A stretch of 41,328 nt of DNA from Nannocystis sp. SCPEA4 (GTDB lineage: Bacteria > Myxococcota_A > Polyangia > Nannocystales > Nannocystaceae): assembly GCF_026626685.1 (NCBI RefSeq), contig NZ_JAPNJX010000021.1, positions 1-41,328 of the forward strand, written 5' to 3'. The notes beneath the pieces are model-generated. The model worked only from the letters and a program-made list of their open reading frames with translations, was not told where the DNA came from and did not search any database. Below are positions 740 through 37,506 of this stretch, piece after piece; positions within the stretch are counted from its first letter, which is position 1, and each line of letters starts with the position of its first letter. A program made the translations under genes and the position numbers.

Positions 740-2309
740 CGTCCTGCTGGAACCAGCGCGCCGCGTAAGCCTGCAGCGCGTCGATCCGACGCAGCGGCGC
801 GCGCACTGCCACGTGACCATCGGGCCTGAGCAGCACGAGTTCAGGCGCGCGCACTCTCCACCCGCGGACCATCGCGCCCGAAGGATCGCCGAGCGTGTCC
901 GCGTCGCCTGTACCCAGGACCAGGTCGCGAACCACCAGCGATCGTCCCCAGCGCTCCGCCAGCTCCCGACCCGCGATCGACAGCGCCTGCGAGCGCGACG
1001 ATCCGTGCATCAGCAAGAGCGTCATCTTCGGCGAGCTCGCCACCAGCGCGTGCAACGACACCGTAGCGTCCCCCTCGCGAAGCATCGCCGCGGGCGCACG
1101 ATCGCCGGCCCGTGGCGACGCACGCGGCCAGCTGCGCGCGTCGACCACCGGCCCCGTCTCGCGATACGACACGCCCTGCTGCGACATGCGCCGGACCAGT
1201 CGCGCCTGCAGCGACCTGAACCGCAGCACTGTGGCGACCGCCAGCTTGCGCAGCGACATCGTCCGGCGACTCGTCGCGCCGCGGAACAGCCTGTCCGTCA
1301 TCTCGAGCGTCCGCTTCGCCACCGCGTGGCGCTCCGCGTCGTAGCTCGCCAGCAGCTCCAGACGCGCCGCGCCGCGAGCCACCATCGCCAGCTTCCACGC
1401 CAGGTTGAAGGCGTCCTGGATCCCCGTGTTCATCCCCTGGCCGCCCGCGGGGCTGTGGATGTGCGCCGCATCGCCGGCGAGGAACACCGAGCCCACGGCC
1501 ATCCGCGGCACCATGCGGTGATGCAGGCGGAACCGCAGGATCCACTCCGGGTCGTGCAGCACGGCCCCTGGCACCAGCTCGTCGGCGAGCCGCTGAAACA
1601 TCTCCAGCGTCGGTTCGGGCGCGTGCCCGTCGCCGCCCATGACGATGATGCGGTAGCGATCGCGCGGCAGCGGGGCGAACACGCACAGCCCCGCGGGCCG
1701 CAGGAACGCGCAGCCGAGGCCCGGCGGCCGGTCCCAGGTAATTTTCAGATCTGCCTGATCGAACATGTCCTCATAGGCCGAACCTTCGAACGGTAAGCCG
1801 AGCCCGTGCCGCACCGCGCTGTGGGCTCCGTCGCAACCCACCAGCCAGCGCGCCGTCACCGTCTCCTCGCGTCCGTCGTCGCCGCCGATCGTCGCCACCA
1901 CCTGCGCGCCCTCGTCGCGGAACGACAGCAGCTTGCGCCCGCGCTCGACCGCGCCGCCGAGCCGCAACAGGTGGTCCTGCAGCAGCCGCTCCGTCGTGCT
2001 CTGGTCGAGGAACAGCGGCCGCGGCACCGCCGGTCCGAGCTGCTCGAGGTCGAGCTGCCCGAGCAACTCCTTCTCGAAGTACACCTGCACCGCCGCCAGC
2101 GCCTGGCCCTCGGCCTCGACCGCCGCGCGCAGGCCCATCGCCTCGAACACCTCGCGCGTGCGCGCATGCACCACCAGCGCCTTCGAGTGCTCGGTCGTGC
2201 GCGGCGCGGGATCGATCACCCGCACGCGCAACCCGAACCGCCGCAGCTCGCACGCCATCGTCAAGCCCGTGGGCCCTGCTCCAGCCACCAGCACATCGAT
2301 CGACTCCAT
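726..2309 (-). CDS. FAD-dependent aromatic-ring monooxygenase (class A flavoprotein hydroxylase, PheA/TfdB-like)
   Basis: N-terminal dinucleotide-binding motif DVLVAGAGPTGLTMA. DG and GD(A/x)AH motifs (VGCDGAHSAVR; FLAGDAAHIHSPAGGQGMNTGIQDAFNLAWKL). Start taken at MESID (ATG 2309) rather than the ORF-track 2336. Confidence 0.8.
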   Translation of the reverse strand: MESIDVLVAGAGPTGLTMACELRRFGLRVRVIDPAPRTTEHSKALVVHARTREVFEAMGLRAAVEAEGQALAAVQVYFEKELLGQLDLEQLGPAVPRPLFLDQSTTERLLQDHLLRLGGAVERGRKLLSFRDEGAQVVATIGGDDGREETVTARWLVGCDGAHSAVRHGLGLPFEGSAYEDMFDQADLKITWDRPPGLGCAFLRPAGLCVFAPLPRDRYRIIVMGGDGHAPEPTLEMFQRLADELVPGAVLHDPEWILRFRLHHRMVPRMAVGSVFLAGDAAHIHSPAGGQGMNTGIQDAFNLAWKLAMVARGAARLELLASYDAERHAVAKRTLEMTDRLFRGATSRRTMSLRKLAVATVLRFRSLQARLVRRMSQQGVSYRETGPVVDARSWPRASPRAGDRAPAAMLREGDATVSLHALVASSPKMTLLLMHGSSRSQALSIAGRELAERWGRSLVVRDLVLGTGDADTLGDPSGAMVRGWRVRAPELVLLRPDGHVAVRAPLRRIDALQAYAARWFQQDATCD

Positions 2310-2322
2310 CGCTCCGCTCCTG

Positions 2323-2382
2323 AAGTGAGTGCTCACTCACCGTGCCACGCGACCCGCCATCTTGCAAGTGAGTGCTCACTCA
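2323..2382. promoter_or_regulatory. twin palindromic operator AAGTGAGTGCTCACTCA (x2) in the divergent monooxygenase/TetR promoter
   Basis: Two identical 17-bp copies, 2323-2339 and 2366-2382, 43 bp centre-to-centre. Each is an inverted repeat AGTGAG-TG-CTCACT. They lie between the two divergent start codons (2309 and 2401). Confidence 0.55.
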
Positions 2383-2400
2383 GGCCATGATTCGCGGGCC

Positions 2401-3024
2401 ATGGCCACGCGCGAAGACGAACAAGCCCCGGTGCGCGGCGTCGAGCGCATCGTCCGCGCGGCGATCGAGGTGATCGCCGAGCGCGGCTTTCGAGGCGCCG
2501 CGACCAGCGAGATCGCCCGGCGAGCCGGCGTCGCCGAGGGCACGATCTTCCGTCACTTCAAGACCAAGCAGTTGCTGCTCGACCACATCCTCGAGCCGTT
2601 CGTCGAGCGGGTGCTGGCGCCGATCGCCTTCCGCGACGTGCACCGCCTGATCGACAGCGACTACCCCGAGTTCGCCGACTTCCTGCGGGTGTTCGCGCGC
2701 AACCGCCTCGAGGTCGCGCGCGAGAACCTGCCGGCGCTGCGGATCTTCCTGCAGGAGGTCCCGCTCAGCCCCGAGCTGCGGGCGATGGTGTTCCGCCACA
2801 TCGGCCGCCACCTCGTCCCGGAGCTGCTCGCGGTCATCCGCAAGTACCAGGCGCGCGGACAAGTCCGCGACGATCCGCCCGAGACCGTCCTGCGGATCCT
2901 CATGAGCGCCGTCGGCGGCTACATCATCACGCGCCTGGCGATCCTGCCCGAATACCCGTGGAACGACGACCTCGAGCTCGAGCGCACGATTCGCGTCGTC
3001 ACGCGCGGCCTGGCCCCCGACTGA
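2401..3024 (+). CDS. TetR/AcrR family transcriptional regulator
   Basis: N-terminal HTH typical of TetR ([41 protein letters not shown]). Start at ATG 2401 (MATRED...), downstream of the operator pair. Confidence 0.8.
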   Translation: [207 protein letters not shown]

Positions 3025-3065
3025 CCTGTCCTTTCGACCAGCCTCCGAACCGGTGCTACCTTTCA
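3021..3065. repeat. CTGTCC/GGACA-family repeat copy (intergenic, TetR to M3 peptidase)
   Basis: cctgtcctttcgaccagcctccgaaccgg... is nearly identical to the copy at 32819-32845 (cctgtcctttcagcctggcgaaccacgg). Confidence 0.45.
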
Positions 3066-3069
3066 GCCC

Positions 3070-4776
3070 GTGTTCGGCTCGCTCCCCCTGCCGCCGCGGC
3101 GCTACCTGCCCGCCAGCGTGCGCCTCGATCGGCTCGCCGACCTCGAGGCCTGCTACGGCGAGCTCGGGGCGCGGCCGCTGCCGGCCGACGATCCGTGGAT
3201 CCTCGAGCAGTGGCTGCGCGACTGGTCCGAGCTCGAGAGTCACCTGTCCGAAGCGCAGGCCCGGCGGCAGATCGCCAGCAGCTGCAGCGCCGACGATCTC
3301 GAGGCCGCGCGGGCCTGGCTGGTCCACGTCGACGTCCTCGGGCCCGCATGCAAGCCGCTGCGTCACGCGCTCGCGCGGCGCCTGGTCGAGCACCCCGCGG
3401 CCGCGCGCCTGCCTCCAGGCCACGCCTGCGCCCTCGCCGTCCTGCGCAACCGCGTCGATCTGTGGCGCCCCGGCCTCGCCCCGCTCGAGGTCGCCGAGCA
3501 GCACCTTTGCGCCGAGTACGGTCGGCTGCGCGCCGGCATGCAGGCCGCGTGGGACGGCGCCGACGCGCCGCTGACCCACGTCGAGCGCAGCGAGGACGAC
3601 CTCGATCGCGGCCGCCGCGAGACCGCCTGGCGCACCGTCGCCGCCAGCTTCCGCGCCGCCAAGCCCGAGCTCGATCACCTGTTCGACCGCCTGCTCGCCA
3701 ACCGTCGGGCCCAGGCCGCGGCCGCCGAGCTGCCTGACTATCGCGCCTATCGCTTTCGCCGCCTCGACCGCCTCGCCTACGGCCCGCGCGAGTGCCTCGC
3801 GCTGCACGACGCCATCGCCGCCGAGTTCGTCCCGCTCGCCGGCCGCGTCCTCCGCCGCCGCGCCGCCGCGCTCGGCCTGCCCGCCCTGCGCCCGTGGGAC
3901 CTCGCCGTCATGCCCGGCGGTCCCCTCGCCTCCTTCACCCGCGAGGAGCAGCTCATCGCCGGCTGCACCCGGGCCTTCGAGGCCGTCGATCCCGAGCTCG
4001 CGCGGCAGTTCTCCGTCCTCGCCGAACATGGCCTTTTGGACCTGATGTCAAGGCCAGGCAAGGCCCCCGGCGCCTTCCAGGTCCACCTCGACGCCAGTGG
4101 CCTCCCGTTCGTGTTCGCCGGCGCCGTCGGCCGCCACGAGGACCTGCTCACCGTCTTGCACGAGGCCGGCCACGCCTTTCACGCCCTCGCCTGCGCCGCC
4201 GACCCGCTGATCTGGAACCGCGGCCCGCCGATCGAGTTCTGCGAGGTCGCCAGCATGGGCATGGAGCTCCTGGGCGGGCGCCACCTCGGCGCCTTCTACG
4301 ACGCCGACGCCTGCACCTGCGCCGCGCGCCACCAGCTCGAGCAGCTCGTGCTGTTCCTGCCGCACGCCGCCGCGATCGACGCCTTCCAGCACTGGGTCTA
4401 CACCCGGCCCGAGCAGGCCCGCGACCCGCAGGCCCGCGACGCCGCCTGGCTCGCGCAGCACCGCCGCCTGTGCCCCGGCGTCGACTGGAGCGGCCTCGAC
4501 GACGACCGCGCCGCGCTGTGGCAGCGCCGCCTGCACGTGTTCGAGCTCCCCTTCTATTACATCGAGTACGCGATCGCCGGCCTCGGCGCCGTCCAGCTGC
4601 ACCGCCGCGCCCTCGCCGAGCCCGCGGCCGCCGTCGCCGACCTCCGCCGCGCCCTCGCGCTCGGCGCCCGCGCTCGCCTGCCCGACCTGTTCGCCGCCGC
4701 CGGCCTGCACTTCGGGACAGATCGCAGCAGCGTCCGCCGGGCCGCCGACGCCTGCCGCGAGCTCCTCGACCTCTGA
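3070..4776 (+). CDS. M3 family oligoendopeptidase (PepF-like)
   Basis: HEXXH zinc motif (VLHEAGHAFHAL). GKAPGAF motif typical of M3B. 568 aa. Confidence 0.8.
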   Translation: MFGSLPLPPRRYLPASVRLDRLADLEACYGELGARPLPADDPWILEQWLRDWSELESHLSEAQARRQIASSCSADDLEAARAWLVHVDVLGPACKPLRHALARRLVEHPAAARLPPGHACALAVLRNRVDLWRPGLAPLEVAEQHLCAEYGRLRAGMQAAWDGADAPLTHVERSEDDLDRGRRETAWRTVAASFRAAKPELDHLFDRLLANRRAQAAAAELPDYRAYRFRRLDRLAYGPRECLALHDAIAAEFVPLAGRVLRRRAAALGLPALRPWDLAVMPGGPLASFTREEQLIAGCTRAFEAVDPELARQFSVLAEHGLLDLMSRPGKAPGAFQVHLDASGLPFVFAGAVGRHEDLLTVLHEAGHAFHALACAADPLIWNRGPPIEFCEVASMGMELLGGRHLGAFYDADACTCAARHQLEQLVLFLPHAAAIDAFQHWVYTRPEQARDPQARDAAWLAQHRRLCPGVDWSGLDDDRAALWQRRLHVFELPFYYIEYAIAGLGAVQLHRRALAEPAAAVADLRRALALGARARLPDLFAAAGLHFGTDRSSVRRAADACRELLDL

Positions 4777-4796
4777 CACAGCCGCGACCGACGCGT

Positions 4797-4856
4797 CCCA
4801 TGTCTTTTTGAACATGCTCGAAAGGGCATGTCCAAAACAACATGACCTTCGAGCTC
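4797..4856. repeat. 4 x 14-bp phased CATG-core tandem array (CCATGTCTTTTTGA / ACATGCTCGAAAGG / GCATGTCCAAAACA / ACATGACCTTCGAG)
   Basis: CATG at 4799, 4813, 4827 and 4841, so exact 14-bp spacing. Low GC. It forms the bogus N-terminus of ORF 4808..7012. Confidence 0.6.
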
Positions 4857-5194
4857 AGCGGACCCCGCCCGCGCTCCGACCCCATCATCGGCTGACCCTC
4901 GCCGAGCCGGCGAACTTGTCCGCGCGCCCCACTCTCACGGACAATTCGGCCCCGTCCCCGCGAGAAGTCACGGTCCTCATCGCGCCTCTCACCCGCCAGC
5001 CCCGACGTCCTGACCCGCTGTCGCTCCCCGCCCTCGCACGCCCGCTCGCCCGCACCGATTCGCGTCCGGCGGCCGCGCCTCGACCTCGCAGGTGCTCCGG
5101 GTCATGTCTCCGGGGACAGCCGGAGATCGCCGCCGCGCGCGCCCGGTCGGCCCCTCTTGCGCCGCTCGCCCGCGCTCGCGCATCCTCTTCGCCC

Positions 5195-7012
5195 ATGTCG
5201 CCCCGCGTCTCGTGGCTCCTCCTCGCCCTCGCGCTCGCCTGTCGGCCCGATCCTGCGTCGCGGTCGCCCGAGTCCGCCCCAGCACCGGAGGCGGCGGCCC
5301 GGACCGCCTGGCGCGACCCTCCGCCCGTCGAGCTCGAGCGTCTGCGCGGCCACCTCGCTTTCCTCGCCGACGATGCCCAGGAGGGCCGCCCGCCCGGCAC
5401 ACCGGCCGACGCCCGGGTCGAGGATCACATCGAGCAGGCGTTCCGCGCGCTCGGCCTGCAACCTGGCTTCGGGGACAGCTACCGTCAGCAGTTCGAGTTC
5501 ACCAACGGCGTCGCCCTGCGCTCCGGCGAGCAGAGCGCCCTCGACGTCGGCGGCAAGCCGATCGCCCACACCCTCGTCCCGTTCGCCGCCGCCACCGCGG
5601 CCCCCGTGACCGCCCCGCTCGTCTACGTCGGCCACGGGATCCCCGGCGACAGCCCCGACAGCGGCGACTACGCCAAGATCCTCGCCAAGGTGAAGGGCGC
5701 GATCGTCGTCGCGCGCAGCGGCTCGCCCGCCGATCCGCACCTCGATCCGGCCAAGACGCGCGTCCAGTCGAAGGTCATCGCCGCCCGCGATCGCGGCGCT
5801 GTCGGCTTCATCCTCTGGGAGCCCGACGCTGTCGTCCCCTACCCCAACCACGGCGAGGCCAACGACCTCCAGCTGCCCGCCGTCACCGTCTCGGCCGCCG
5901 GCACGCCCGACCTGCTCAAGGCGTTCGGCAAGAAGGGTCCCGTCACGCCCACCAACCTCCACGGCGGTCTCGTGCCCGGCGCCACCAGCAAGGCCAGGGC
6001 CGCGCTGCACAGCCCGATCCAGCGCGTCACCGCCACCACCGCCAACGTCGCCGGCCTGCTCAAAGGGACAGGTTCCAGGCGCATCGTCCTCGGCGCGCAC
6101 ATGGACCACCTCGGGCGCGGCAACAACTCCTCGCTCGCGCCCGGCGTCGACGCCATCCACAACGGCGCCGACGACAACGCCTCCGGTGTCGCCGCCCTGC
6201 TCGGTGTCGCCGCCGCCCTCGCCCAGCTCCCGGCCGAGGCGCGCCCGTTCGACCTCCAGTTCGTCGCCTTCGCCGCCGAGGAGATGGGGCTGCTCGGCAG
6301 CAAGCGCGTCGTCGAGTCGCTCTCGCCCGAGGCGAAGCGGGACATCGTCGCCATGCTCAACTTCGACATGGTCGGGCGCGTGCGCGACAACACCGTCGTC
6401 GTCGTCGGTACCGGCACCAGCAGCGCCTGGCCCGGCCTGCTCGAGCGGGTCAAGGCCGACCCGCGGGACCCCGCGCGGACCCTCACCATCAAGCCGAGCG
6501 AGGACGGCTTCGGCGCCTCCGACCAGGCCAGTTACTACGCCGCCGACATCCCCGTCCTCCACTTCTTCAGCGGCGCGCACGACGACTACCACCGGCCGAC
6601 CGACGACTTCGACAAGATCAACCTCGACGGCGCCGCCGCGATCGCCGACCTCAGCGTCCGCCTGGTCGGCGTGCTCCTGCGCGAGCAGCCGGCCCTCGAC
6701 TTCAAGAAGGTCGCGGCCGCCGCTCCGCGCGGCGGTGGCTTCCGCGTCTCGCTCGGCACCGTCCCCGACTACGCCGCCAACGCCGACGGCATGAAGCTCG
6801 CAGGCGTCCGTCCGCAGAGCCCCGCCGAAGCCGCCGGGATGCGCGCCGGCGACGTCATCGTCAAGATCGGTGCCCGCGAGATCCACAACATCGACGACTA
6901 CATGGCCAGCTTCGGCGAGCTGCAGCCGGGCGTCGCCGTCCCGATCGTCGTCGAGCGCGAGGGCGCCAGGGTCGAGCTGACGATCACCCCGGCGGCTCCG
7001 ACGCGGCGCTGA
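5195..7012 (+). CDS. M28 family peptidase lipoprotein with PA domain and C-terminal PDZ domain
   Basis: Lipobox signal peptide [17 protein letters not shown]28 motifs ([38 protein letters not shown]). C-terminal PDZ-like segment ([28 protein letters not shown]). Start ATG 5195 chosen because the upstream ORF extension is repeat sequence. Confidence 0.8.
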
Positions 7013-7169
7013 CATTCCGGGCGATTGCCCGAGCGCGTTTTCGCGCATTCCTGCCGGACGTGCGACCGGCGGCGAAATCAGCGTTCATGTGCTGCCTCGC
7101 CGCCGTTGCTCCCATGCCCACGCGGCTGGTATATGCAGCGCGGACCTCCTAGGGGGAAAGATCTCGCAC

Positions 7170-8134
7170 ATGTCACGTCGCAACAAGATCACGATCGTGG
7201 GCGCCGGCAACGTCGGAGCGACGGCCGCGCACTGGGCCGCGCAGAAGCACCTGGGCGACATCGTCCTCGTCGACATTGTCCAGGGCGTACCGCAGGGCAA
7301 GGCGCTCGACCTCGCCGAGGCCGCGCCGGTCATGGGTTTCGACCTCAAGATCGTCGGCACCAACGGCTACGACGAGACGGCCGACAGCGATGTCGTCGTG
7401 ATCACCGCCGGGGTCCCGCGCAAGAAGGACCCGGTCACCGGCAAGTTCACCAGCCGCGACGAGCTCGTCGAGATCAACCGCAAGATCGTCGGCGGCGTCA
7501 CCCGCGAGATCGCCAGCCGTTCGCCGAACGCGGTGCTGATCTGCGTCAGCAACCCGCTCGACGCCATGTGCCACGTCATGTACGCCGAGTCGGGCTTCCC
7601 CAAGGAGCGCGTGATCGGCATGGCCGGCGTGCTCGACACGGCGCGCTACAAGTACTTCATCTCCGAGGCGCTGAACGTCAGCGTCGACGACATCCACGGC
7701 ATGGTGCTGGGCGGCCACGGCGACACCATGGTCCCGCTGCCGAGCCACACCTCGGTGGCCGGCATCCCGCTGACCGAGCTGCTGCCGCAGGACAAGATCG
7801 ACGCGATCATCCAGCGCACGCGCGGCGGCGGCGGCGAGATCGTCGGCCTGCTCGGCTACTCCGGCTACTACGCGCCGGCGGCGGCCTCGGTGGCGATGGT
7901 CGAGGCGATCGTCCGCGACCGCAAGCGCGTGCTCCCGTGCGCCGCCCTGCTGGCGGGCGAGTACGGCTACCGCGACCTCTTCATCGGCGTCCCGTGCGTC
8001 ATCGGCAAGGGCGGCGTCGAGAAGGTCATCGAGATGAAGCTCGGCGACAAGGAGAAGGGCATGCTCGAGGTCTCGGCCAACGCCGTGCGCGAGCTGGTGG
8101 CCCTCCTGCCCTACGGGAAAGGCCAGGCGACCTG

Positions 8135-8135
<1 letters not shown>
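7170..8135 (+). CDS. mdh: malate dehydrogenase (LDH-like family)
   Basis: [15 protein letters not shown] Rossmann motif. Conserved MDH core. Shine-Dalgarno-like AGGGGGAAAG 10 nt upstream of ATG 7170. Confidence 0.9.
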
Positions 8136-10224
<2,089 letters not shown>

Positions 10225-10245
10225 TCGCTCACCGCTTGCGATTGC

Positions 10246-13425: not shown

Positions 13426-13428
13426 CGC

Positions 13429-15078: not shown

Positions 15079-15089
15079 GCGACCCCCTC

Positions 15090-28101: not shown

Positions 28102-28136
28102 CCAGCCCTCTTATACCTGGCCGATCGGACAGCCCC

Positions 28137-28742
28137 GTGGTCTACATCAGCAAGGTCTACACCAAGTTCGGCGACCGCGGCGACACCATGCTCGCCAGCG
28201 GCGACACCGTCGGCAAGGACGCCCCGCGCGTCGCGGCCTACGGCGACGTCGACGAGCTCAACGCCGTGCTCGGCGTGCTGCGCGTCGAGCTGGCCCGCGT
28301 CGAGCCCGCCGCGCAGCGCGAGCTGCTGACGGCGCTGGACGCCCAGCTGGGGCGGATCCAGCAGGAGCTGTTCGACCTCGGCGCCGAGCTGGCGACGCCG
28401 GGCGCGACCGAGGGCAAGGCCCCGTTGCGCGTCGAGGAGGCCGACGTCACACGGCTCGAGCAAGAGCTCGACGCGTGGAACGCCGACCTGCCGCCGCTGC
28501 GCAGCTTCATCCTGCCGGGCGGCGGCCCGCTCGGCGCCTACGCCCACCTCGCCCGCACCGTCTGTCGCCGGGCCGAGCGCACCGTGGTCGCGCTGACCCG
28601 CGTCGAGCCGGTCCGCGCCGAGGCCGTCCGCTATCTCAACCGCCTCAGCGATTACTTCTTCGTCGTCGCCCGCGCCGTCGCCCACGCGTTCGCCGTGCCC
28701 GAGGTCCTGTGGGATACGCATCGCCGGAGCTCCACCCCGTGA
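28137..28742 (+). CDS. PduO-type ATP:cob(I)alamin adenosyltransferase
   Basis: VYISKVYTKFGDRGDTML...RVAAYGDVDELNAVLGV signature. GTG start 28137. Confidence 0.8.
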   Translation: MVYISKVYTKFGDRGDTMLASGDTVGKDAPRVAAYGDVDELNAVLGVLRVELARVEPAAQRELLTALDAQLGRIQQELFDLGAELATPGATEGKAPLRVEEADVTRLEQELDAWNADLPPLRSFILPGGGPLGAYAHLARTVCRRAERTVVALTRVEPVRAEAVRYLNRLSDYFFVVARAVAHAFAVPEVLWDTHRRSSTP

Positions 28743-29847: not shown

Positions 29848-30011
29848 AGCGCGGCCGAGGATCGGGCGAGACAACCGCAGCGCCCGACGAGCGAAGCGCC
29901 CCGGAACGCCCGGGCTCGGCCCGTGCACGCGTTGCTGCGCCTGCGGACCCCGCGACGACGAGCGCGCCCGGGCTGCGACGAGCGCAGCGCGGGCGCGGAG
30001 GGATGGCCGAT

Positions 30012-30058
30012 CGCACATGTCCCGAGGACCCTGTCCCCGGGGCCATGCGCCGGGCTCA
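30012..30058. repeat. repeat-family copy between convergent genes (gcaCATGtcccgaggaccCTGTccccggggcCATGcgccgggctc)
   Basis: CATG 30016, CTGT 30031, CATG 30044, a 14/15-bp phase. Contains a CCCCGGGG palindrome. Sits at the ACP 3' end, so it may be a bidirectional terminator. Confidence 0.55.
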
Positions 30059-30322
30059 GGACGCGGCGGCCTGCTTCTCCTGCAGCGTCTTGTGCAGCAG
30101 GTCGACCAGCTCGTTGATGTTGGTCAGCTTGTTGAGCTCGGCGCGGGGGATCTTCACCTTGAGCTCGCGCATGCTGCAGGAGACGACCTCGACGATGTCG
30201 AGACTGTTGGCGCCGAGGTCCTTCATCGACTTCGCGGGGTCGACCTGGGCCGAATCGATCCCTTCGACGGTGTCCACGAGGTGGCGCTTGACGACGGCCA
30301 AGACATCATCGCGGGTGCTCAT
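30056..30322 (-). CDS. acyl carrier protein
   Basis: DLGANSLDIVEVV with the phosphopantetheine-attachment Ser. 88 aa. Confidence 0.85.
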   Translation of the reverse strand: MSTRDDVLAVVKRHLVDTVEGIDSAQVDPAKSMKDLGANSLDIVEVVSCSMRELKVKIPRAELNKLTNINELVDLLHKTLQEKQAAAS

Positions 30323-30385
30323 TCTCGGTTCTCCTTGGTGGGCGCGGGGCAGACGGCCCGCAGCGAATCTCGCAGGAAATGAAGC

Positions 30386-31201
30386 TCAAAAACTCAGCCC
30401 GTGGCGCTCGCGCGCAGAGAACAGGCGAACGACGTTGTCGGCGAAACCGAGCCCTCTGTCCAGTAGCAGAATCTGCCCCTTGACCCCGTCCATGAGGCCG
30501 CTGCAGAGGGCCAGCGCCGCGGCCGCGACCTCGTCGGGGTCGATGAACCAGCCCTCCGAGTAGTACTTCTTGCAGAACGGCACGAAGTCGGGCCCGAAGG
30601 TCGCTTCCAGCGATGCAGTCTCGACCGGGTTCGCGCGCAGGATGTTGATGCGAACATCCTCACTGAGCAGATCTGCCGTGAGGTAGCGACAGAAGGTCTC
30701 CATCACGGTCTTGCTCGCGGCGACGAAGTCATAGCCCGGCAGGAAGTACTCGGGCCCGCGCGACGACATTCCCACGGCGTACTTCGGCCAGCGGCCGAAG
30801 GTCTCGCGCACCGCCTGCAGGTAGCCGACGAACGGCCACGCGCTGTAGCCGAGGCTGCGCAGGAACGACTTCTTGTCGAGGTCCTCGTGCGACTTGCTGA
30901 CGTGGGCGAACGACACGTTGCTGATCAGCGCGAACACGGCGTCGTGGTCGCGGCGGATCAGCTGCATCAGCGCCTCGGTGTCCTCGTCCTGCGACGCGTC
31001 GGCCTCGACGATCGTCGGCGCCGGCGCGCCCGCGGCCTCGAACTGCGCGCGCAGCTCGTCCTCGTCGGCCGAGCCCCAGCGGTGCGTGAGGTACACGTGC
31101 GCGCCGTGCTTGCCGAACAGGAGGCCCGTCGCCAGGCCGATGCCCGCCGTCCCGCCGGTGACGATGACGGCCTTGCCCTTGAGATCGTTGCGGAGGATCA
31201 C
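30386..31201 (-). CDS. FabI-like enoyl-[ACP] reductase (SDR family)
   Basis: GKAVIVTGGTAGIGL Rossmann. Y-x6-K dyad (YDFVAASK) typical of FabI-type ER. GTG start with a GGAAGGGA Shine-Dalgarno. The ORF-track N-terminal extension is Arg-rich junk. Confidence 0.7.
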   Translation of the reverse strand: MILRNDLKGKAVIVTGGTAGIGLATGLLFGKHGAHVYLTHRWGSADEDELRAQFEAAGAPAPTIVEADASQDEDTEALMQLIRRDHDAVFALISNVSFAHVSKSHEDLDKKSFLRSLGYSAWPFVGYLQAVRETFGRWPKYAVGMSSRGPEYFLPGYDFVAASKTVMETFCRYLTADLLSEDVRINILRANPVETASLEATFGPDFVPFCKKYYSEGWFIDPDEVAAAALALCSGLMDGVKGQILLLDRGLGFADNVVRLFSARERHGLSF

Positions 31202-32013
31202 GACGCCGTCCCTTCCTTGTCGGTGCCGCCGACGAGGCGGGGCCCGAGCGTGGCGATGTTGTCGACGAACGCGGCCCCGCGGTCGAGCGTCAGCACCTGC
31301 CCGCCCATCGCGTCGAACAGGCCGCTGCACAGCGCGAGCGCGGTGTCGGCGACCTCGTCGACCGTGCACGCGAACTCAGGGAACTTGCCGGCCAGCGCGC
31401 GCTGCTCGGCGGCGAACATCTGCTCGTAGCTCTCGGTCATCACCTGGCGGGTGCGCAGCGCGTTGACGATGCAGCCGTGCTCGTACAGGTGCGTGCTCAT
31501 GTAGCGCACGAACGTCTCGAGCACCGCCTTGGCCACGGCCACGTAGTCGTAGCCCGGGTAGTGGGTGTCGGGGCCGTCGGACGACATCGCCAGGGCGTAG
31601 CGCGGGTAGCGACCGAACGCGGCGTGCAGCGCCTGCAGGTAGCCGACGAACGGCCAGCTCGAGTACTCGAGGCTCTTGTACAGCGCGCGCCGGCTGTGAC
31701 TCATCGGCCCGTCGCCGCGCTGGACCACGCACACGTTGCTGATGAAGGCCCACACGCCGTCGCACTCCTCCTTGAGGCGCGCCGTCAGCTTGTCGGTGTC
31801 CTCCTCGCGCGAGGCGTCGGCCTCGATCACCAGCGGCGCCGGGGCGCCCGCGGCGATGAACCGGGCCCGCAGCGCGTCCTCGTCGGCCGAGCCCCAGCGG
31901 TGCGTCAGCACCGTGCGCGCGCCGTGGCGACCGAACGCGAGCGCGCACGCGAGGCCGATGCCCCGCGTCCCGCCCGTGATCAAGACGACCCTGTCCTTCA
32001 AGTCATGCAGCAA
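31198..32013 (-). CDS. FabI-like enoyl-[ACP] reductase paralog (SDR family)
   Basis: About 45% identical to the downstream paralog (DRVVLITGGTRGIGL; YDYVAVAK). TTG start preceded by GGAGGAAGA. The first codons are rare and contain a CCTGTCC word. Confidence 0.65.
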   Translation of the reverse strand: MLHDLKDRVVLITGGTRGIGLACALAFGRHGARTVLTHRWGSADEDALRARFIAAGAPAPLVIEADASREEDTDKLTARLKEECDGVWAFISNVCVVQRGDGPMSHSRRALYKSLEYSSWPFVGYLQALHAAFGRYPRYALAMSSDGPDTHYPGYDYVAVAKAVLETFVRYMSTHLYEHGCIVNALRTRQVMTESYEQMFAAEQRALAGKFPEFACTVDEVADTALALCSGLFDAMGGQVLTLDRGAAFVDNIATLGPRLVGGTDKEGTAS

Positions 32014-32042
32014 GCGTCTTCCTCCGTTGCCTCGTCCGTGCG

Positions 32043-32816
32043 CTACCCGGAGCCCTTGGCGTAGTTCGTGCGGATCCGCGCCACCGTCTCCGGGTCGGCG
32101 AAGCATACCTCGTGCATCATCGACTCGACCGTGCGCGCCTCCTCGAACGCGCGCCGCCGCGGCAACGCCAGCGCACGCTTGAGCAATAGCAGCGCAGCGC
32201 GCGGCTTGTCGGCGATCCGCGCCGCCATGTCGATCGCCCGCGGCAGCACCTCGGCGCGCGGCACGACCGCGTTGACCTGGCCGCGCCCGGCCAGCTGCTC
32301 GCCGCGGAAGTACTGCCCGCCGAACAGCATCTCGGCCGCGACGTACTCGCCGAACGCGAACTGCAGCAGCCGCGTCGAGCCCATCCCCGGGGTGAAGCCC
32401 AGGTCCATGAAGTTGGCGCCGTAGCGGCTCTCGCGGGCCAGCACGACCATGTCGCAGGCCAGCCCGAACACGAGGCCGCCGCCGACCGCCGGCCCGGCCA
32501 TCGCCGCGACCGTCGGCACCGGCGCCTCGAGCAGCGCCCGCGTCAGCACCAGATCGTACGGCGCGATCGTGCCCTCGGCCAGGCCGAGCAGCACGTCGCG
32601 GTCGCCGCCGGCCGAGAACACCTCGGGCAGCCCCGCGATCACGCACACGCGCACGTCGGCGCGCCGGCCGAGGTCCTCGAGCGCCTGCGTCAGCGCGGCC
32701 GCGAACGCGCGGCTGAACGCGTTCTTGCCCGCCACGTCGCGCATGGTCAGCACCGCCAGCCCCTCGCGCTCGAGCGTCACGTCGACGAGGCTGTCTGTTG
32801 GGACATGCGCGTTCAT
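32043..32816 (-). CDS. enoyl-CoA hydratase/isomerase (crotonase) family protein, ECH of the beta-branching cassette
   Basis: Crotonase fold (VCVIAGLPEVFSAGGD; GPAVGGGLVFGLACD). ATG 32816. Confidence 0.8.
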   Translation of the reverse strand: MNAHVPTDSLVDVTLEREGLAVLTMRDVAGKNAFSRAFAAALTQALEDLGRRADVRVCVIAGLPEVFSAGGDRDVLLGLAEGTIAPYDLVLTRALLEAPVPTVAAMAGPAVGGGLVFGLACDMVVLARESRYGANFMDLGFTPGMGSTRLLQFAFGEYVAAEMLFGGQYFRGEQLAGRGQVNAVVPRAEVLPRAIDMAARIADKPRAALLLLKRALALPRRRAFEEARTVESMMHEVCFADPETVARIRTNYAKGSG

Positions 32817-32835
32817 TCCTGTCCTTTCAGCCTGG
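32791..32835. repeat. repeat-family copy spanning a start codon and RBS (ctgtctgttgggacatgcgcgttcattcctgtcctttcagcctgg)
   Basis: On the minus strand it reads GAAAGGACAGGA-ATG-AACGCGCATGTCCCAACAGACAG, that is RBS + MNAHVPTD. The CCTGTCCTTTC half matches the copy at 3024-3034. Confidence 0.55.
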
Positions 32836-33568
32836 CGAACCACGGCGGCGCTTGCCCGTCGGCCAGCAGGGCGGCCAGCGCCGCCCGCAGTTCGGGGTCC
32901 TCGAGGTCGGCCGCGGTCTGGGCCACCCCGCCCTGCCCGGCCGTCGCGGTGATCCGCTTGAGCGTCGCCACCGCCTGCGGGCGGGCCCGCAGCAGCGAGC
33001 GCATGAGCCCGCGCAGGGCCGTATTCGGCTCGTCCGCGACCACGTCGACGAGCCCCCACGGCTCGGCCTGGGCGGCCGTCACGACCTCGCCGGTAAGCGC
33101 CAGCCGCCGGGTCCGCCGCGCGCCGAGGCGCGCTTCGAGGGCCGGCAGGATCACCGCCGGCACCAGCCCGTAGCGCAGCTCCGGCAGCGCGAACGTGGCC
33201 GCGGGGCCGGCGATCACCAGGTCGCAGGCAGCAGCCAGCCCGACCCCGCCGCCGCTGGCCGCGCCGATGACCACCGCGATCGTCGCCAGCGGCGCGCTCG
33301 CCAGCAGCTCGAGACAGCCGGCGTAGCGCTCCATCGCCACGCGCATCGGCCCCGACCCGGTCTTCAGCGCCGCCGCCAGGTCCATGCCGGCGCAGAACTC
33401 CGCCGCCTCGCTGGCGATCACCAGCGCGCGCGCCGACGCGGCGACCGCCTGCTCGACGGCGTCGGCCAGCGCCGCGATCCCGTCGGGGTCGAGAGCGACA
33501 TGTCCCCCGGGACCTGCCCCGAGGTACAGCCGCCAGATCAGCTCGCCCTCTTCGCAGCGGACGCGCAT
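32813..33568 (-). CDS. enoyl-CoA hydratase/isomerase (crotonase) family protein, second ECH
   Basis: Crotonase fold (FCAGMDL; GAASGGGVGLAAACD). 4-nt overlap with the downstream ECH. The N-terminus contains a repeat copy (GAGPGGHVALDPDG). Confidence 0.75.
   Translation of the reverse strand: MRVRCEEGELIWRLYLGAGPGGHVALDPDGIAALADAVEQAVAASARALVIASEAAEFCAGMDLAAALKTGSGPMRVAMERYAGCLELLASAPLATIAVVIGAASGGGVGLAAACDLVIAGPAATFALPELRYGLVPAVILPALEARLGARRTRRLALTGEVVTAAQAEPWGLVDVVADEPNTALRGLMRSLLRARPQAVATLKRITATAGQGGVAQTAADLEDPELRAALAALLADGQAPPWFARLKGQE
33491..33525. repeat. repeat-family copy inside the CDS (gagagcgacatgtcccccgggacctgccccgaggt)
   Basis: CATG 33499, CTGC 33514. GGGACATGTCCCCC palindromic core. 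Confidence 0.5.
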
Positions 33569-33604
33569 GGCTCAACTCCTGGGCCGAGGGGCGGACGGGC
33601 GCGG

Positions 33605-33630
33605 CATAACATGTCCCTCAGGACAGGCGG
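33605..33630. repeat. repeat-family copy in the 49-bp gap between HMGS and ECH (cataacatgtccctcaggacaggcgg)
   Basis: TGTCCC-TCA-GGACA inverted repeat. The GGACAGG also serves as a Shine-Dalgarno-like sequence for the ECH gene. Confidence 0.5.
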
Positions 33631-34859
33631 TACTCCCGCTGCCAGCCGCGCACCGCGTCGAGGACGAGCCGGCCCTTGCCGGCGTAGGCGCGCTCGTACA
33701 GCCCGCGCAGCCCCGACTGGTCGACCTCGTAGTCGCTCTGATCGATGTAGCCGGCCCGCAGCCGCTCGAGCGCCTCGTACTCGGCGATCGTCAGCGGCAT
33801 GCGGCGGTCGAGGCCGGCGGCGATCCGCTGGCTGGCGACCCGCTCGCGCGCGCGCTCGCCGACGGTCGTGCGGTAGAACTCGGCGCACGAGCCCGAGCCG
33901 TAGGAGAAGATCGACACCTGGTCGCCGGCGTGCAGCTCGGGGTCGGCGTCGATGAGCCCGAGCATGGCGATGAAGGTCGCCGACGTGTAGGTGCCGCCGA
34001 AGCGCGAGTTGTAGCGCAGCGCCGCCTTCGACTTGCGCTCGAAGTGGGCCTTCGCCTCGCGCAGCGACATCTCGTGCGGCCCGCGGCGCAGCAGCGCCCG
34101 GTGGGCGCGGAACGTCATGCCGCCGAACGGCACGTGGTAGATGTGGCGGGCGAACGCGGCGTCGTAGTCGACCATGCCCGAGCGAGCGACGTAGTGGTCG
34201 TACGCGCCCTCGAGCGCGTCGAGGTAGCCGTACAGGCTGGTGTCGGCGTGGCCGACCTCCTTGGTCGACGTCGGCCGGTAGGTGTCGAAGATCTCCTGCG
34301 TCCAGTAGCCGCAGGTGTCGAGGTCGATCTCGAGGACGTCCGGCTCGGCGCTGACCAGCATCGCCGTGGCCGCCGCGCCGAGCACGTACTCCCACGGCTG
34401 CCCGAGGTGCACGCGGCTCTGGTCGGTGCACACCACCAGCGCCTTCTTGCCCGGGGCCGCGCCCGACGCGACCCAGTGGGCCGCCATCATCAGGCCGCCG
34501 GTGCCGCCGTAGCAGGCGTGCTTGGTCTCGAAGTTGCGGCAGTTGGCCGTGAGCCCGCAGTAGCGCTGCACGTAGGTCGAGATCGGCTTGCCGAAGTCGA
34601 CCGACGACTCGGTGCCGACGATCACGAGCTCGATGTCCTTGCGGTCCTCGGGCCCGACGATCTGCAGCGCGGCGTTGACCGCCATCGTCACCGGGTCCTC
34701 CCACGCGGGGTTCAGCGACCGCTCGCTCACCCACAGCTCCTCGAGCGGGTGGCGCGGATCGTGGTCGCGCGCCTCTGCGAGCAGCTTCATGTCGAGCGAG
34801 AGCGTGCACGGGTAGGCCGTGATCCGCTCGATGCCGACGCGCGGCCGGTGGTGCGCCAT
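33618..34859 (-). CDS. hydroxymethylglutaryl-CoA/ACP synthase family (HMGS, PksG/TaC-like beta-branching enzyme)
   Basis: HMGS active-site region NFETKHACYGGTGGLMMAAHWV (catalytic Cys). 413 aa. Thiolase-like fold. Confidence 0.85.
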   Translation of the reverse strand: MAHHRPRVGIERITAYPCTLSLDMKLLAEARDHDPRHPLEELWVSERSLNPAWEDPVTMAVNAALQIVGPEDRKDIELVIVGTESSVDFGKPISTYVQRYCGLTANCRNFETKHACYGGTGGLMMAAHWVASGAAPGKKALVVCTDQSRVHLGQPWEYVLGAAATAMLVSAEPDVLEIDLDTCGYWTQEIFDTYRPTSTKEVGHADTSLYGYLDALEGAYDHYVARSGMVDYDAAFARHIYHVPFGGMTFRAHRALLRRGPHEMSLREAKAHFERKSKAALRYNSRFGGTYTSATFIAMLGLIDADPELHAGDQVSIFSYGSGSCAEFYRTTVGERARERVASQRIAAGLDRRMPLTIAEYEALERLRAGYIDQSDYEVDQSGLRGLYERAYAGKGRLVLDAVRGWQREYRLS

Positions 34860-34872
34860 CGTCTTCCCCCTC

Positions 34873-35616
34873 TCAGTACGTCCAGTCGAGGCCGCCCGTG
34901 ACCGGCACGACCTGACCGTTGATGAAGCTGCCGCCGTCGGCGAGGAACAGCACCACGGCGGCGAGCTCGTCGAGCGTGCCCATGCGGCCCTTGGGCATCG
35001 GGCAGTACTGCTGCCAGTAGTCCTTGGCCGCCTGCGGCATGGTCTCGCGCGTCATGTCGGTGTCGAAGAAGCCGGGCACGACGACGTTGGCGGTGATGCC
35101 CTTGCGCCCGTACTCCTTGGCGAGCGACTGGGTGAAGCCGTGCAGCCCGGCCTTGCTGGCGGCGTAGTTGGCCTGGCCGGCCGCACCGTTGTGCTGGATC
35201 GACGAGATGTTGACGATCCGGCCGAAGCGCGCCGCCAGCATCTGCGACAGGAACGCGCGCACGACGTAGAACGGCCCGTGGAGGTTGGTGGCGATCACGT
35301 CGTGCCACTCCTCGTCGGACATCGAGACCACCAGGTTGGCGCGGTTGATGCCGGCGCAGTTGACCACGACCTCGACGCTGTCGAAATCGTTCAGCACCTC
35401 GTCGGCGACCTCGGCGACCCGCTCGGCGCGGCTGACGTCGAGCGCGTAGCCCTTGCACTTCGCGCCCGGGCGCAGCGCCGCGGCCTCGGCCTCGATCTTG
35501 CGCGCGGCCTCGTCGTTGCTGCGGTAGGCGAACGCGACGTCGTGACCGGCGCGCACCGCCGCGAGCACGATCCCGGCGCCGATCCCCCGCGAACCTCCGG
35601 TGACGAAGAAGTTCAT
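34873..35616 (-). CDS. fabG: 3-oxoacyl-[ACP] reductase
   Basis: MNFFVTGGSRGIGAGIV; NISSIQHNGAAGQANYAASKAG (S-Y-K triad); 247 aa classical SDR. Confidence 0.85.
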   Translation of the reverse strand: MNFFVTGGSRGIGAGIVLAAVRAGHDVAFAYRSNDEAARKIEAEAAALRPGAKCKGYALDVSRAERVAEVADEVLNDFDSVEVVVNCAGINRANLVVSMSDEEWHDVIATNLHGPFYVVRAFLSQMLAARFGRIVNISSIQHNGAAGQANYAASKAGLHGFTQSLAKEYGRKGITANVVVPGFFDTDMTRETMPQAAKDYWQQYCPMPKGRMGTLDELAAVVLFLADGGSFINGQVVPVTGGLDWTY

Positions 35617-35624
35617 GGCGCGGC

Positions 35625-36935
35625 TCACAGGGCGTTCGGGTCCCACCGGCGGTACAGCGCGCAGCAATTGAGGCCGCCGAAGCCGAACGAGTTCTTGACC
35701 ATGAGGTTGATGCGGTGCTCGACCGCCTTGTTGGCGCACACGTCGACGTCGACCTCGGGGTCGAGCTCGTCGATGTTGATCGACGGGTGCAGCACGCCGC
35801 CGCGCATCTGCAGCAGCGCCGCGACCGTCTCGACCGCCGGCGCCGACCAGCAGGTGTGGCCGAGCATCGACTTCGGCGCGTTGATCTTGAGCCGCTTGGC
35901 GTGGTCGCCGAACACCTTGCGGATCGCGTTGAGCTCCGACAGGTCGCCGAGCGGCGTGCTGGTCGCGTGGGCGCAGATGAAGTCGATCTCCTCGGGCCGC
36001 ACCTGCGCGCGCCGCAGCAGGCGCTCGAGCGTGCGCGCCTGGCCCTCGGTCGACGGCGACGGCAGGTGACAGCCGTCCGACGTCGAGGTGCAGCCGAGCA
36101 CCTCGGCGTAGATCGTCGCGCCGCGCTTGAGCGCGTGGCCGAGCTCCTCGAGCACCAGCGCGCCCGCCCCGTGCGACGGCACGAAGCCCTCGCGGCGGGA
36201 GTCGTAGGGCCGGCTGGCCAGCTCGGGCGTGTCGTTGAAGCTTTCGAAGGTGATGGCGCCGAGCAGCGCCATCGCGTGCACGCCCATCTGCGAGAAGTCG
36301 AGCACCGCGCCGACCACCATCGCCATGTCGTGGTCGTGGTGGCGGATCTCGTCGATCGCGTTGCGCAGGGCCACGTTGGCGCTGGCGCACGCGCCACCCA
36401 GCGTGTAGCAGGAGCCCTTCCAGCCCAGCATCTCGCTCACCGATCCGGCGTGGTCGGTGTCGAGCATGTGCAGCGCCGCCATCGAGTCGATGTAGTCGGG
36501 GTCCTCGGTCTGGAAGGTGACGTAGTTGTCGGCGAAGTAGCGCTCGTTGAGGTTGTGGCCGCCGACCAGCACCGCGCAGCGCGTCGGGTCCGCGACCTCG
36601 ACCATGCCGGCGTCGCGCCAGGCGTCGGCGGCGCACAGCACCGACAGCGACGTCGAGAACGGCGCCTTGTTGCACAGGAGGCGCGCCCGCTTGTGCACCT
36701 CGGCCGGCAGCACGTCGCGCAGGCGCGCGAGCTTGGCCTTGACGTCGTACTCCGACAGATCGCCGCCGATCTTCGAGTAGACGCCCTCGTTGTTGTGCCA
36801 CTTCCAGCGCGTGATGGCGGACTTGCCGGCGACGAGGTTGGCGTAGAACGTGTCGAGATCGTCGCCGAGCGGCGTGTTGATACCGAGGCCGGTGATGACC
36901 ACGCGGCGGGGCGATTGTGCCTGCGATGAGACCAT
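35625..36935 (-). CDS. beta-ketoacyl-[ACP] synthase (FabF/FabB-like; active-site Cys retained)
   Basis: GGACASANVAL (Cys), CAHATSTPLGD (His), SMLGHTCWSAP (His). 436 aa. Confidence 0.85.
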   Translation of the reverse strand: MVSSQAQSPRRVVITGLGINTPLGDDLDTFYANLVAGKSAITRWKWHNNEGVYSKIGGDLSEYDVKAKLARLRDVLPAEVHKRARLLCNKAPFSTSLSVLCAADAWRDAGMVEVADPTRCAVLVGGHNLNERYFADNYVTFQTEDPDYIDSMAALHMLDTDHAGSVSEMLGWKGSCYTLGGACASANVALRNAIDEIRHHDHDMAMVVGAVLDFSQMGVHAMALLGAITFESFNDTPELASRPYDSRREGFVPSHGAGALVLEELGHALKRGATIYAEVLGCTSTSDGCHLPSPSTEGQARTLERLLRRAQVRPEEIDFICAHATSTPLGDLSELNAIRKVFGDHAKRLKINAPKSMLGHTCWSAPAVETVAALLQMRGGVLHPSINIDELDPEVDVDVCANKAVEHRINLMVKNSFGFGGLNCCALYRRWDPNAL

Positions 36936-36951
36936 GCGTGCTCTCTGGGGG

Positions 36952-37506
36952 TCAGTCCATCAGGTAGACCTCGAACACCGCGAGGGCCTGGACCTCCTCG
37001 CCGCGGAGGGCCTGACCGACGCAGGTCGAGACGTAGTCGCTGTGCTCGAGCGAGCGGGCGAGCAGCGTCAGCCGGTCGCCCGGGCGGACGCCGCCCTGGA
37101 ACAGGGCGTGGTGGACCTTGAGCAGCCGCAGCCGCGCCGGAGCGTCGGTCGCGTCGATGCGGGCTGTCCCTTTGGCCATGAGGTGCAAGAGACAGATCCC
37201 GAGCTGCCCGATCGCCTCGACCAGCAGCACCCCCGGGTACACCGGGTCGCCGGGGAAGTGGCCGGCGAACACCGCGTCGCCGGCGTCGATCGTGCGCGCG
37301 CCCCGGATCATCCCCGGCTCCTCGGCGCTGCGCGGCAGCTCGACCGCGTCGATCGCGTCGACGAACAGGAACGGGTCGCGGTGCGGCAGCATCCGCTCGA
37401 TGTCCGCGCGGCCGAACTCCACCCGCGTGGAGCCCTCCCCGGGCACGAACACCGGCCGGCGCCGGTGCTGCTTGATCAGCGTGTCGAGGCCGCTCAGCTC
37501 GTCCAC
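36952..37506 (-). CDS. fabZ: 3-hydroxyacyl-[ACP] dehydratase (hotdog fold)
   Basis: LPHRDPFLFVDAI...GHFPGDPVYPGVLLVEAIGQ. GTG start with an AGGAGG Shine-Dalgarno, overlapping the stop of the upstream acyltransferase. The ORF-track N-terminal extension is discarded. Confidence 0.8.
   Translation of the reverse strand: MDELSGLDTLIKQHRRRPVFVPGEGSTRVEFGRADIERMLPHRDPFLFVDAIDAVELPRSAEEPGMIRGARTIDAGDAVFAGHFPGDPVYPGVLLVEAIGQLGICLLHLMAKGTARIDATDAPARLRLLKVHHALFQGGVRPGDRLTLLARSLEHSDYVSTCVGQALRGEEVQALAVFEVYLMD

Follow-up and report, generated by a model that had tools for sequence, protein, structure and literature searches.

Repetitive extragenic palindromic (REP) sequences and bacterial interspersed mosaic elements (BIMEs) are short palindromes that occur in regularly spaced clusters (PMC2817692). 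Here we describe a repeat that resembles them, found in a 41,328-nucleotide stretch of Nannocystis sp. SCPEA4 (contig NZ_JAPNJX010000021.1, positions 1 to 41,328; hereafter the window) and in other Nannocystis genomes. Its unit is the palindrome TGTCC-N4-GGACA, mostly in the form CATGTCC-N4-GGACATG. As in the REP and BIME families of the Enterobacteria, Pseudomonas and Stenotrophomonas, the palindrome is short and conserved in sequence, not just in structure, the copies are numerous, lineage-specific and arranged in regularly spaced clusters with predicted stable stem-loops, per base they are commonest 3′ of genes and between convergent genes and rare in promoter regions, and the number of units at one locus varies between related genomes. 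The reading we favour, at a probability of roughly 45%, is that the repeat is a REP/BIME-like family of stem-loops at gene 3′ ends with a putative sequence-specific partner.

REPs are imperfect palindromes of about 20-40 nt, specific to a lineage and present in more than 100 copies per genome; the Nannocystis palindrome measures 18-24 nt with predicted stems of 7-13 bp, and its copy number exceeds that figure by the extrapolation given below. Its clusters hold 2-7 units at an exact 14-bp period, for which the alternating orientation of BIMEs is undefinable, the unit being its own reverse complement. In contrast to REPs and BIMEs, the unit is just 14-18 bp long, each arm is self-complementary in its own right, adjacent units share CATG as an overlap, several arrays are kept in register across the whole genus, and one third of the perfect double units lie in coding sequences (CDSs) under silent-site constraint. 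The GTAG-type 5′ tetranucleotide of REPs is not visible in the Nannocystis base profile. REPs are further associated with a REP-associated tyrosine transposase (RAYT) that the repeats flank; none is identified for the Nannocystis repeat, and no search aimed at one was made.

The palindrome, its spacing and its taxonomic range

The first-pass annotation of the window had described short rare-codon, low-GC islands in genes otherwise rich in GC at third codon positions (GC3) and had tied them to the words TGTCC and GGACA. The pentamer does not hold up as the unit: it is not over-represented in the whole window (88 occurrences versus 72±8.7) or in the CDSs (64 versus 60.9±5.5), and the signal behind its matches is the palindrome. 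Several TGTCC and GGACA matches lie 9 bp apart, and TGTCCNNNNGGACA with at most two mismatches occurs 52 times in the window versus 16±3.7 expected. In 445 kb of pooled Nannocystis DNA, from which the neighbourhoods of perfect two-unit scan matches (see below) had been subtracted, the spacer is exactly 4 nt, with 59 copies of TGTCC-N(k)-GGACA at k=4 as against 0-2 for any other k from 0 to 12, and the inverse arrangement, GGACA-N(k)-TGTCC, is found 38 times at k=0 and otherwise 0-2 times. When all 1,024 possible 5-mer arms are ranked at N4 spacing, TGTCC comes first (59 versus 0.5 expected), and the base profile around it widens the element to ggaCATGTCC-N4-GGACATGtcc. The 59 perfect units amount to about one per 7.5 kb or, by extrapolation and not by direct count, to >1,000 per 12-13 Mb genome.

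Units abut head-to-tail at exactly 14 bp and share CATG, the period consisting of the self-complementary decamer GGACATGTCC and a 4-nt spacer. The array at 4799-4855, for example, reads CATGTCTTTTTGAA CATGCTCGAAAGGG CATGTCCAAAACAA CATGACC, and phased arrays also stand at 15180, 25323, 28046, 30002, 33494 and 40960. The arrays show up as an excess of CATG-to-CATG spacings of 14 and 28 bp; the 42-bp spacing is in excess too, mostly through in-CDS pairs that are no arrays. Arrays reach up to 7 units, the sizes of 6-7 being found in intergenic DNA, and mostly 1-2 units are present in CDSs. Tandem Repeats Finder did not report these arrays, as the spacers are too divergent between units.

A scan for the exact two-unit pattern in one genome per species (185,579 species, 596 Gb) returned 65 stretches. 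About 48 of these are in Nannocystis (N. punicea, N. bainbridge, N. pusilla, N. exedens, N. radixulma, RBIL2 and metagenome-assembled genomes, MAGs), with 2-17 perfect double units in each individual genome, about 14 belong to a different repeat in Mesorhizobium, and three are singletons. Units with at most one mismatch number 6-16 per 20-41 kb in Nannocystis loci versus about 0.5-1 expected, and none at all is present in the sucC loci (21 kb each) of Nannocystaceae ST9, Paraliomyxa and a Nannocystis-labelled MAG with 78% SucC identity. The two-unit pattern is thus essentially confined to Nannocystis. The Mesorhizobium repeat, a 44-bp hairpin CCCCCCTCTGTCCTGCCGGACATGTCCGGCAGGACAGAGGGGGG (in loci L005, L008, L010, L014 and others, e.g. 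L005:4311-4366), is also interspersed and intergenic and has the core TGTCC-N4-GGACATGTCC-N4-GGACA in common with the Nannocystis unit. Unlike that unit, it is a single long, perfectly paired hairpin whose spacers are fixed and complementary to each other and whose ends are G/C runs, and it does not form phased arrays of free spacers; because Mesorhizobium belongs to an unrelated phylum, the likeness is probably convergent. Our literature search found no paper on the motif in bacteria, and GGACATGTCC as a query gave only papers on p53 response elements. From its sequence the repeat would be a previously undescribed, Nannocystis-only palindromic element and a variant of the REP/BIME type.

Could these counts be a chance or compositional artefact of a 70% GC genome? 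The pentamer alone is weakly enriched and most in-CDS matches with two mismatches are expected (24 of 38, see below), as such an artefact would have it. The excess of the palindrome in the window, the count of perfect units at N4 spacing only, the limitation of the two-unit pattern to one genus and the empty outgroup loci all speak against it, however, and this explanation, to which we assign next to no probability, is already refuted.

Intergenic arrays and gene 3′ ends

Genes were mapped by Pfam scans of long open reading frames (ORFs), tblastn of called genes and manual checks, which gave 43 CDSs covering 89.9% of the window (about 70% GC). A codon log-odds gene finder recovered 42 of the 43 stop codons and was applied to all Nannocystis loci; these methods were used in place of GC3 frame plots, which were too noisy. 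Convergent intergenic DNA, which makes up 2.8% of the total, contains 16 of 48 perfect double units; 12 are in tandem (8%) and 3 in divergent (4.9%) intergenic DNA, and 16 in CDSs (82%). Many of the 48 are 1-30 bp from stop codons, on both sides, and the element is present at most gene 3′ ends sampled. The density of units with at most one mismatch is 1.1-1.7 per kb in intergenic DNA versus 0.24-0.39 per kb in CDSs. Split by intergenic type, it is 5.1 per kb between convergent genes, compared with 1.75 in tandem and 0.67 in divergent spacers. The repeat is not strictly extragenic, since despite this per-base enrichment CDSs contain 16 of the 48 perfect double units, as well as 10 of the 16 units that the window has with at most one mismatch. 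The first-pass annotation had placed the words inside genes, where copies do exist; their main home is intergenic, at gene 3′ ends, and the strongest copies (4799-4855, 10256, 28046-28131, 30002-30050 and 33612) were missing from its list. The intergenic features of the window are as follows.

3025-3040, single unit CCTGTCCTTTCGACCA (match at 3027), starting 1 bp past the stop codon (3022-3024) of a TetR-family gene
4799-4856, four-unit array with CATG at 4799, 4813, 4827 and 4841, 22 bp past the stop codon of the M3 peptidase gene
5103-5120, single unit CATGTCTCCGGGGACAGC with one mismatch, some 75 bp before the start codon of the M28 peptidase gene
10244-10290, plus strand, terminator-like hairpin past sucD with the perfect unit TGTCCTGAGGGACA (10256-10269) as its apex, followed by a T-run
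28046-28131, six-unit array occupying the space from the stop codon of a DUF4388 gene (28045) to the cobalamin adenosyltransferase start (28137)
30002-30050, array of three units between convergent genes, with its end 6 bp away from the ACP stop codon (30056)
33609-33627, perfect single unit ACATGTCCCTCAGGACAGG that overlaps the stop codon of the HMG-CoA synthase gene

In the six-unit array at 28046-28131 position and register are the same in 7 genomes, with C[AC]TG[TC]CC heptads every 14 bp and 4-nt spacers that vary freely. In its N. punicea version CCTG replaces CATG and breaks the palindrome, and the direct repeat ACCTGYCC is still found every 14 bp. The array at 30002-30050 is kept in 6 genomes, the remainder of its intergenic spacer being hypervariable. 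At 4799-4856 CATG and the core are kept in L001, an N. pusilla contig about 96% identical to the window in DNA, with different spacers; the predicted hairpin has a free energy of -22.5 kcal/mol (z-score -2.4). The 3′ end of the M3 gene carries an array in all five genomes compared, with 1, about 3, 4, 4 and 6-7 units, which indicates that arrays also expand and contract. The unit past the TetR-family gene is kept in L001 and in L079 (N. pusilla Na p29), where it is duplicated: in L079:5190-5290 a 20-bp direct duplication CCTGTCCCTTCGACCAGCCT surrounds a 45-bp insert holding another unit, which looks like a local duplication that extended an array. The arms of the unit at 5103-5120 are kept in L077 and L079 with different loops, and the unit is absent in L078. 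At 33609-33627 the right arm is kept as coding sequence and the left arm is limited to the pusilla/radixulma group, so that this palindrome was gained beside an old coding arm.

The sucD hairpin (-35.9 kcal/mol, z-score -6.9) is identical in L001, absent in L002 and one clear case of a U-tract terminator. A consensus scan for terminators and promoters over positions 1-20000 of the window gave one terminator-like site versus 5.6 expected and missed this hairpin. The CCTGYCC variant in tandem intergenic DNA is found in the sense orientation 31 times versus 13 antisense, a weak bias that may be compositional.

Some further observations concern the spacers in which these copies lie. In two assemblies cobO, the gene after the six-unit array, is called 15 codons longer, from an ATG within an array CATG (28089-28137), and this ATG is missing from other genomes. 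Judged by its conservation, the GTG at 28137 is likely the cobO start, and the repeat thus causes start-codon miscalls. Downstream of the ACP gene, within the otherwise hypervariable convergent spacer, a 45-nt block CGACGAGCGCGCCCGGGCTGCGACGAGCGCAGCGCGGGCGCGGA at 29950-29995, in which a sequence of about 20 nt is repeated directly, hardly varies among six Nannocystis genomes and may be a small RNA or a 3′-untranslated-region element. A sister palindrome family, CACCTGGCC-N4-GGCCAGGTG, has several copies in the variable spacer 3′ of the ACP gene (L070:16520-16760 and L072:16330-16460). The M3-M28 spacer (4777-5194) is unusually long at 418 bp, with an 83-bp indel relative to L001, and elsewhere contains whole inserted genes, eutBC in L078 and a 397-aa ORF in L079.

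The genes themselves, as identified by Pfam, include an FAD monooxygenase, a TetR-family regulator, M3 and M28 peptidases, mdh, sucC, sucD, a DUF4215 protein, epimerases, two lspA copies, nadB, cdnL and a PduO-type adenosyltransferase. The SucC protein shares 99% identity with its Nannocystis pusilla counterpart, and the DUF4215 gene contains, at 10677-10984, a cysteine-rich repeat of 93 bp (31 codons) in about three tandem copies. On the minus strand, a cluster at 30056-39786 encodes an ACP, two SDRs, two enoyl-CoA hydratases (ECHs), an HMG-CoA synthase, KR, KS, a FabA-like dehydratase, an acyltransferase (AT) and an AONS-like aminotransferase; in it a beta-branching cassette is combined with a pathway of the lipid or polyketide type, and it is followed by a divergent spacer of 450 bp with lower GC (39787-40238).

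Copies inside genes and silent-site constraint

Codon bias in the window is extreme (CAC 93% versus CAT 7%; GGC 73% versus GGA 4%). Rare-codon islands were defined as at least 4 (or at least 5) rare codons in 10 and compared with 300 within-gene synonymous shuffles, which keep the amino acids and the codon usage. The clustering reported in the first-pass annotation was borne out, with 50 islands at the threshold of four versus 27.3±3.7 in shuffles, none of which reached 50, and 20 versus 6.9±2.2 at the threshold of five. The reported coincidence with TGTCC or GGACA is real for 14 of the 50 islands (2.4±1.4 in shuffles, 0/300 reaching it) and fails for about 70% of them, which have no motif; the number of islands overlapping a TGTCCN4GGACA-like site is likewise 14, versus 1.0±0.9 (0/300). 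The observation was therefore real but incomplete and is partly confirmed, about a quarter of the islands being in-gene copies of the palindromic repeat.

The palindrome is also in excess when it is counted across the CDSs. With at most two mismatches it occurs 38 times versus 24.0±3.5 expected from synonymous shuffles (n=500 in this test), with at most one mismatch 10 times versus 2.5±1.4, and 14-bp tandem pairs occur 5 times versus 1.1±0.8; in each case 0 of 500 shuffles reached the observed count. In-CDS units are found in all three reading frames. A comparison of silent sites across orthologues, which the first-pass annotation had proposed, came out in favour of constraint, with rare codons on motif cores kept in 62 of 64 comparisons versus 729 of 1561 (47%) elsewhere, a count over four divergent genomes that is pseudo-replicated. 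When each site is counted once, rare codons with the third base on the motif core are fully conserved at 14 of 16 sites versus 146 of 404 elsewhere (p=5e-5). The in-gene features of the window are the following.

4027-4044, unit CATGGCCTTTTGGACC with two mismatches in the M3 peptidase CDS
6055-6072, unit CCTGCTCAAAGGGACAGG with two mismatches in the M28 peptidase CDS
8415-8428, weak match TGACCATTCAGACA with two mismatches in sucC
15180-15239, four-unit array inside an epimerase-like CDS (15090-15977), encoding ..TTRSGTWPNGHVPEG..
25322-25366, three-unit array near the 3′ end of a small ORF (25086-25436)
33494-33530, two-unit array in codons 13-25 of an enoyl-CoA hydratase CDS (32813-33568, minus strand)
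37163-37180, unit GCTGTCCCTTTGGCCATG with one mismatch, within a rare-codon island of the FabA-like dehydratase CDS
40960-40991, two-unit array in an epimerase CDS (40239-41327; ..GCPFDHVPEDP..)

The six strings quoted in the first-pass annotation are all present within 1-5 bp of where it had put them, and all six are inside real CDSs. Four contain the palindrome with at most two mismatches, namely the second (M3, 4029), third (M28, 6057), fourth (sucC, 8415) and sixth (FabA-like, 37165). Its proposal that the DNA word is kept against codon bias is partly supported and applies to the M3 and M28 units and to the silent sites of motif cores in general. The M3 unit keeps the rare codons CAT, CTT, TTG and CCA in L001, L077, L078 and L079, down to 72% protein identity, and L077 and L078 retain both arms of the M28 unit, along with its rare codons ACA and GGT, and vary in the loops. 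The proposal does not apply to sucC, where ATT, ACA and GAA are all swapped for common codons in L077, L079 and L002 and the sequence is probably not that of a functional copy, or to the membrane protein example (26066-26095, given as 26070), which has no palindrome and whose rare codons are not conserved in other Nannocystis genomes. The monooxygenase example (1761) is weak, with a unit of 3 mismatches and GAT and GCA as the only conserved rare codons.

Three of the in-gene arrays are conserved as well. At 25322-25366 ACA TGT CCn GAA GGA CCT is kept in five of five other genomes, and at 33494-33530 the rare codons GCA, GGT, GGA and CAT are kept in L068, L070, L072 and L073. At 15180-15239 the rare codons ACA, GGA and CAT are kept in 7-8 genomes, and in the motif-free outgroup L076 the corresponding loop is present without the motif and two codons shorter, which indicates that the DNA word shaped a variable protein loop. 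The statement that such islands are not insertions, which the first-pass annotation had based on the conservation of the encoded residues, fails for this epimerase-like gene, whose array lies in a variable loop with a 2-codon indel.

A possible objection is that the islands serve translation, through pausing, co-translational folding or 5′-end mRNA accessibility, and that their overlap with the palindrome is a by-product of words that contain A or T, any of which needs rare codons in this GC3-rich genome. The majority of islands, which have no motif, would agree with this, as would the conservation of several of these across genomes, such as 27122-27175. The shuffles carry the same codons, however, and produce about one palindrome island where 14 are observed, this palindrome also prevails in intergenic DNA, in which codons play no part, and the conservation is specific to motif core positions. 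A translational role is largely refuted for the motif-bearing islands, and we regard it as very improbable as an account of the repeat.

Separately from the motif, islands with a weak motif or none (27122-27175, which is codons 3-20 of the DUF4388 gene, 26261-26338 and 30443-30475) keep rare codons, among them TTT, GAA, CTT, CAA, CTA and GGT, in all Nannocystis genomes compared, which points to some other silent-site constraint as well.

The presence of one word both in genes and between them recalls the DNA uptake sequences (DUS) of Neisseria and the uptake signal sequences (USS) of the Pasteurellaceae and Haemophilus, which are taxon-specific, over-represented words of coding and intergenic DNA that shape codons and residues and also occur in terminator stems. 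By analogy, sequence-biased uptake, gene conversion or repair could drive the Nannocystis word to high copy wherever it is tolerated. Its genus-specific abundance, the copies in all frames that shape codons and loop residues, the copy in the sucD terminator stem and the arm gained beside an existing half-site at 33609-33627 can all be understood in this way. On the other hand, DUS and USS are neither palindromic nor phased in tandem arrays and have a density of roughly one per kb, much above that of the perfect units here, and the exact N4 spacing and common CATG suggest a structural unit. The Nannocystis element is also biased toward 3′ ends. We consider an uptake- or recombination-type signal improbable.

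Possible stem-loops or duplex sites, and what the repeat may mean

Our favoured explanation, a REP/BIME-like stem-loop family at gene 3′ ends, begins from the period, since a decamer plus a minimal loop, placed after stop codons and between convergent genes, fits a bidirectional 3′-end element. In single-stranded RNA or DNA, neighbouring decamers would base-pair, forming stems 7-13 bp long that end in a 4-nt loop; folding predicts 10-13 bp for these stems, again with 4-nt loops, and z-scores of -5 to -7 for the two-unit-scan loci and -2.4 for the window arrays. Lying a few to a few tens of bases past stop codons, and most densely between convergent genes, such stem-loops may define or protect transcript ends in both directions. 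We infer a putative protein that would recognise the stem, because the stem sequence itself is conserved, not just its complementarity. The motif-bearing islands inside genes would then be the low-density tail of the repeat family, accommodated in tolerant loops or by synonymous rare codons and held by the same sequence-specific pressure as the intergenic copies.

Several results weigh against this explanation and keep it tentative. Many copies are single units with a 5-7 bp stem of marginal stability, and CCTG variants, as in the N. punicea array, break the palindrome. Double changes at mirrored stem positions show no excess of compensatory changes, a test confounded by the GC-rich background, and mismatches in tandem intergenic regions bear no RNA-specific G·U signature (128 G·U-compatible on the sense strand versus 115 A·C). 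Rfam gave no match at the gathering threshold in the window. Most arrays are not canonical intrinsic terminators, because a T-rich tract (four or more T among 6 nt, no further than about 18 nt downstream) follows just 8-9% of them. Lastly, the third of perfect two-unit copies located in CDSs, and their strong conservation there, would be unexpected for either a 3′-end element or a selfish REP. The lack of compensatory changes and of a G·U excess, the rarity of U-tracts, the missing Rfam match and the conserved in-gene copies together count against a purely RNA-structural role.

Alternatively, the units could be duplex binding sites for an abundant dimeric, Nannocystis-specific protein, for example a nucleoid-associated protein, a roadblock or a global regulator. 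On tandem 14-bp arrays one dimer after another would be loaded round the helix, and copies would be tolerated at gene ends and in genes and selected against in promoter regions. It is sequence identity and not complementarity that is kept, the N4 and N0 spacings are exact, there is no strand asymmetry between G·U and A·C, silent sites are kept inside CDSs in all three frames, divergent regions are depleted, and N. punicea retains its 14-bp direct repeat where the palindrome is broken. Precedents for such geometry exist: the palindromic units of MetJ met-boxes and omega heptads abut head-to-tail at an exact period, and the Crp/Fnr-family 5-4-5 palindrome TTGAT-N4-ATCAA has the same half-site geometry as TGTCC-N4-GGACA. 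However, those sites lie in the promoters of specific regulons, whereas the Nannocystis units avoid divergent promoter regions, occur inside genes and number in the thousands by extrapolation. In addition, a period made of a self-complementary decamer and a minimal 4-nt loop is more simply explained by a hairpin, the preference for positions past stop codons and the T-run terminator apex have no obvious duplex rationale, and an operator would not usually show different unit numbers in different species at a single locus. We consider duplex binding the less likely reading, though a live alternative.

Other known elements were considered and set aside. MrpC or CRP boxes, FNR boxes, parS, matS, DnaA boxes, LexA boxes and extracytoplasmic function (ECF) promoters differ in sequence or spacing, polar words of the FtsK-orienting polar sequence (KOPS) or Chi type are ruled out by the palindromic nature of the element, and clustered regularly interspaced short palindromic repeats (CRISPR) were dropped. 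Restriction-modification sites are normally avoided rather than enriched, and nothing in the data points to such a system.

The large genomes of myxobacteria have been searched intensively for natural products, yet little of their non-coding architecture has been described. It is possible, though we would not call it likely, that the repeat is the footprint of an undescribed sequence-specific system, either an abundant protein coating the 14-bp arrays at gene ends, with a chromosome-organising or transcription-roadblock function, or a DUS-like drive, which overrides codon bias and shapes protein loops genus-wide. The exact grammar of the element (N4, N0 and the 14-bp period) together with its restriction to one genus and its measurable silent-site conservation in genes offers a handle for finding the factor that reads it. 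In practical terms, the repeat is useful for mapping transcript ends in a 70% GC organism in which U-tract terminators are rare, it could improve the annotation of gene starts and ends, as the cobO miscalls illustrate, and it matters for analyses of codon usage and selection that treat silent sites as neutral. It also provides a natural case for studying how an interspersed repeat colonises coding sequence.

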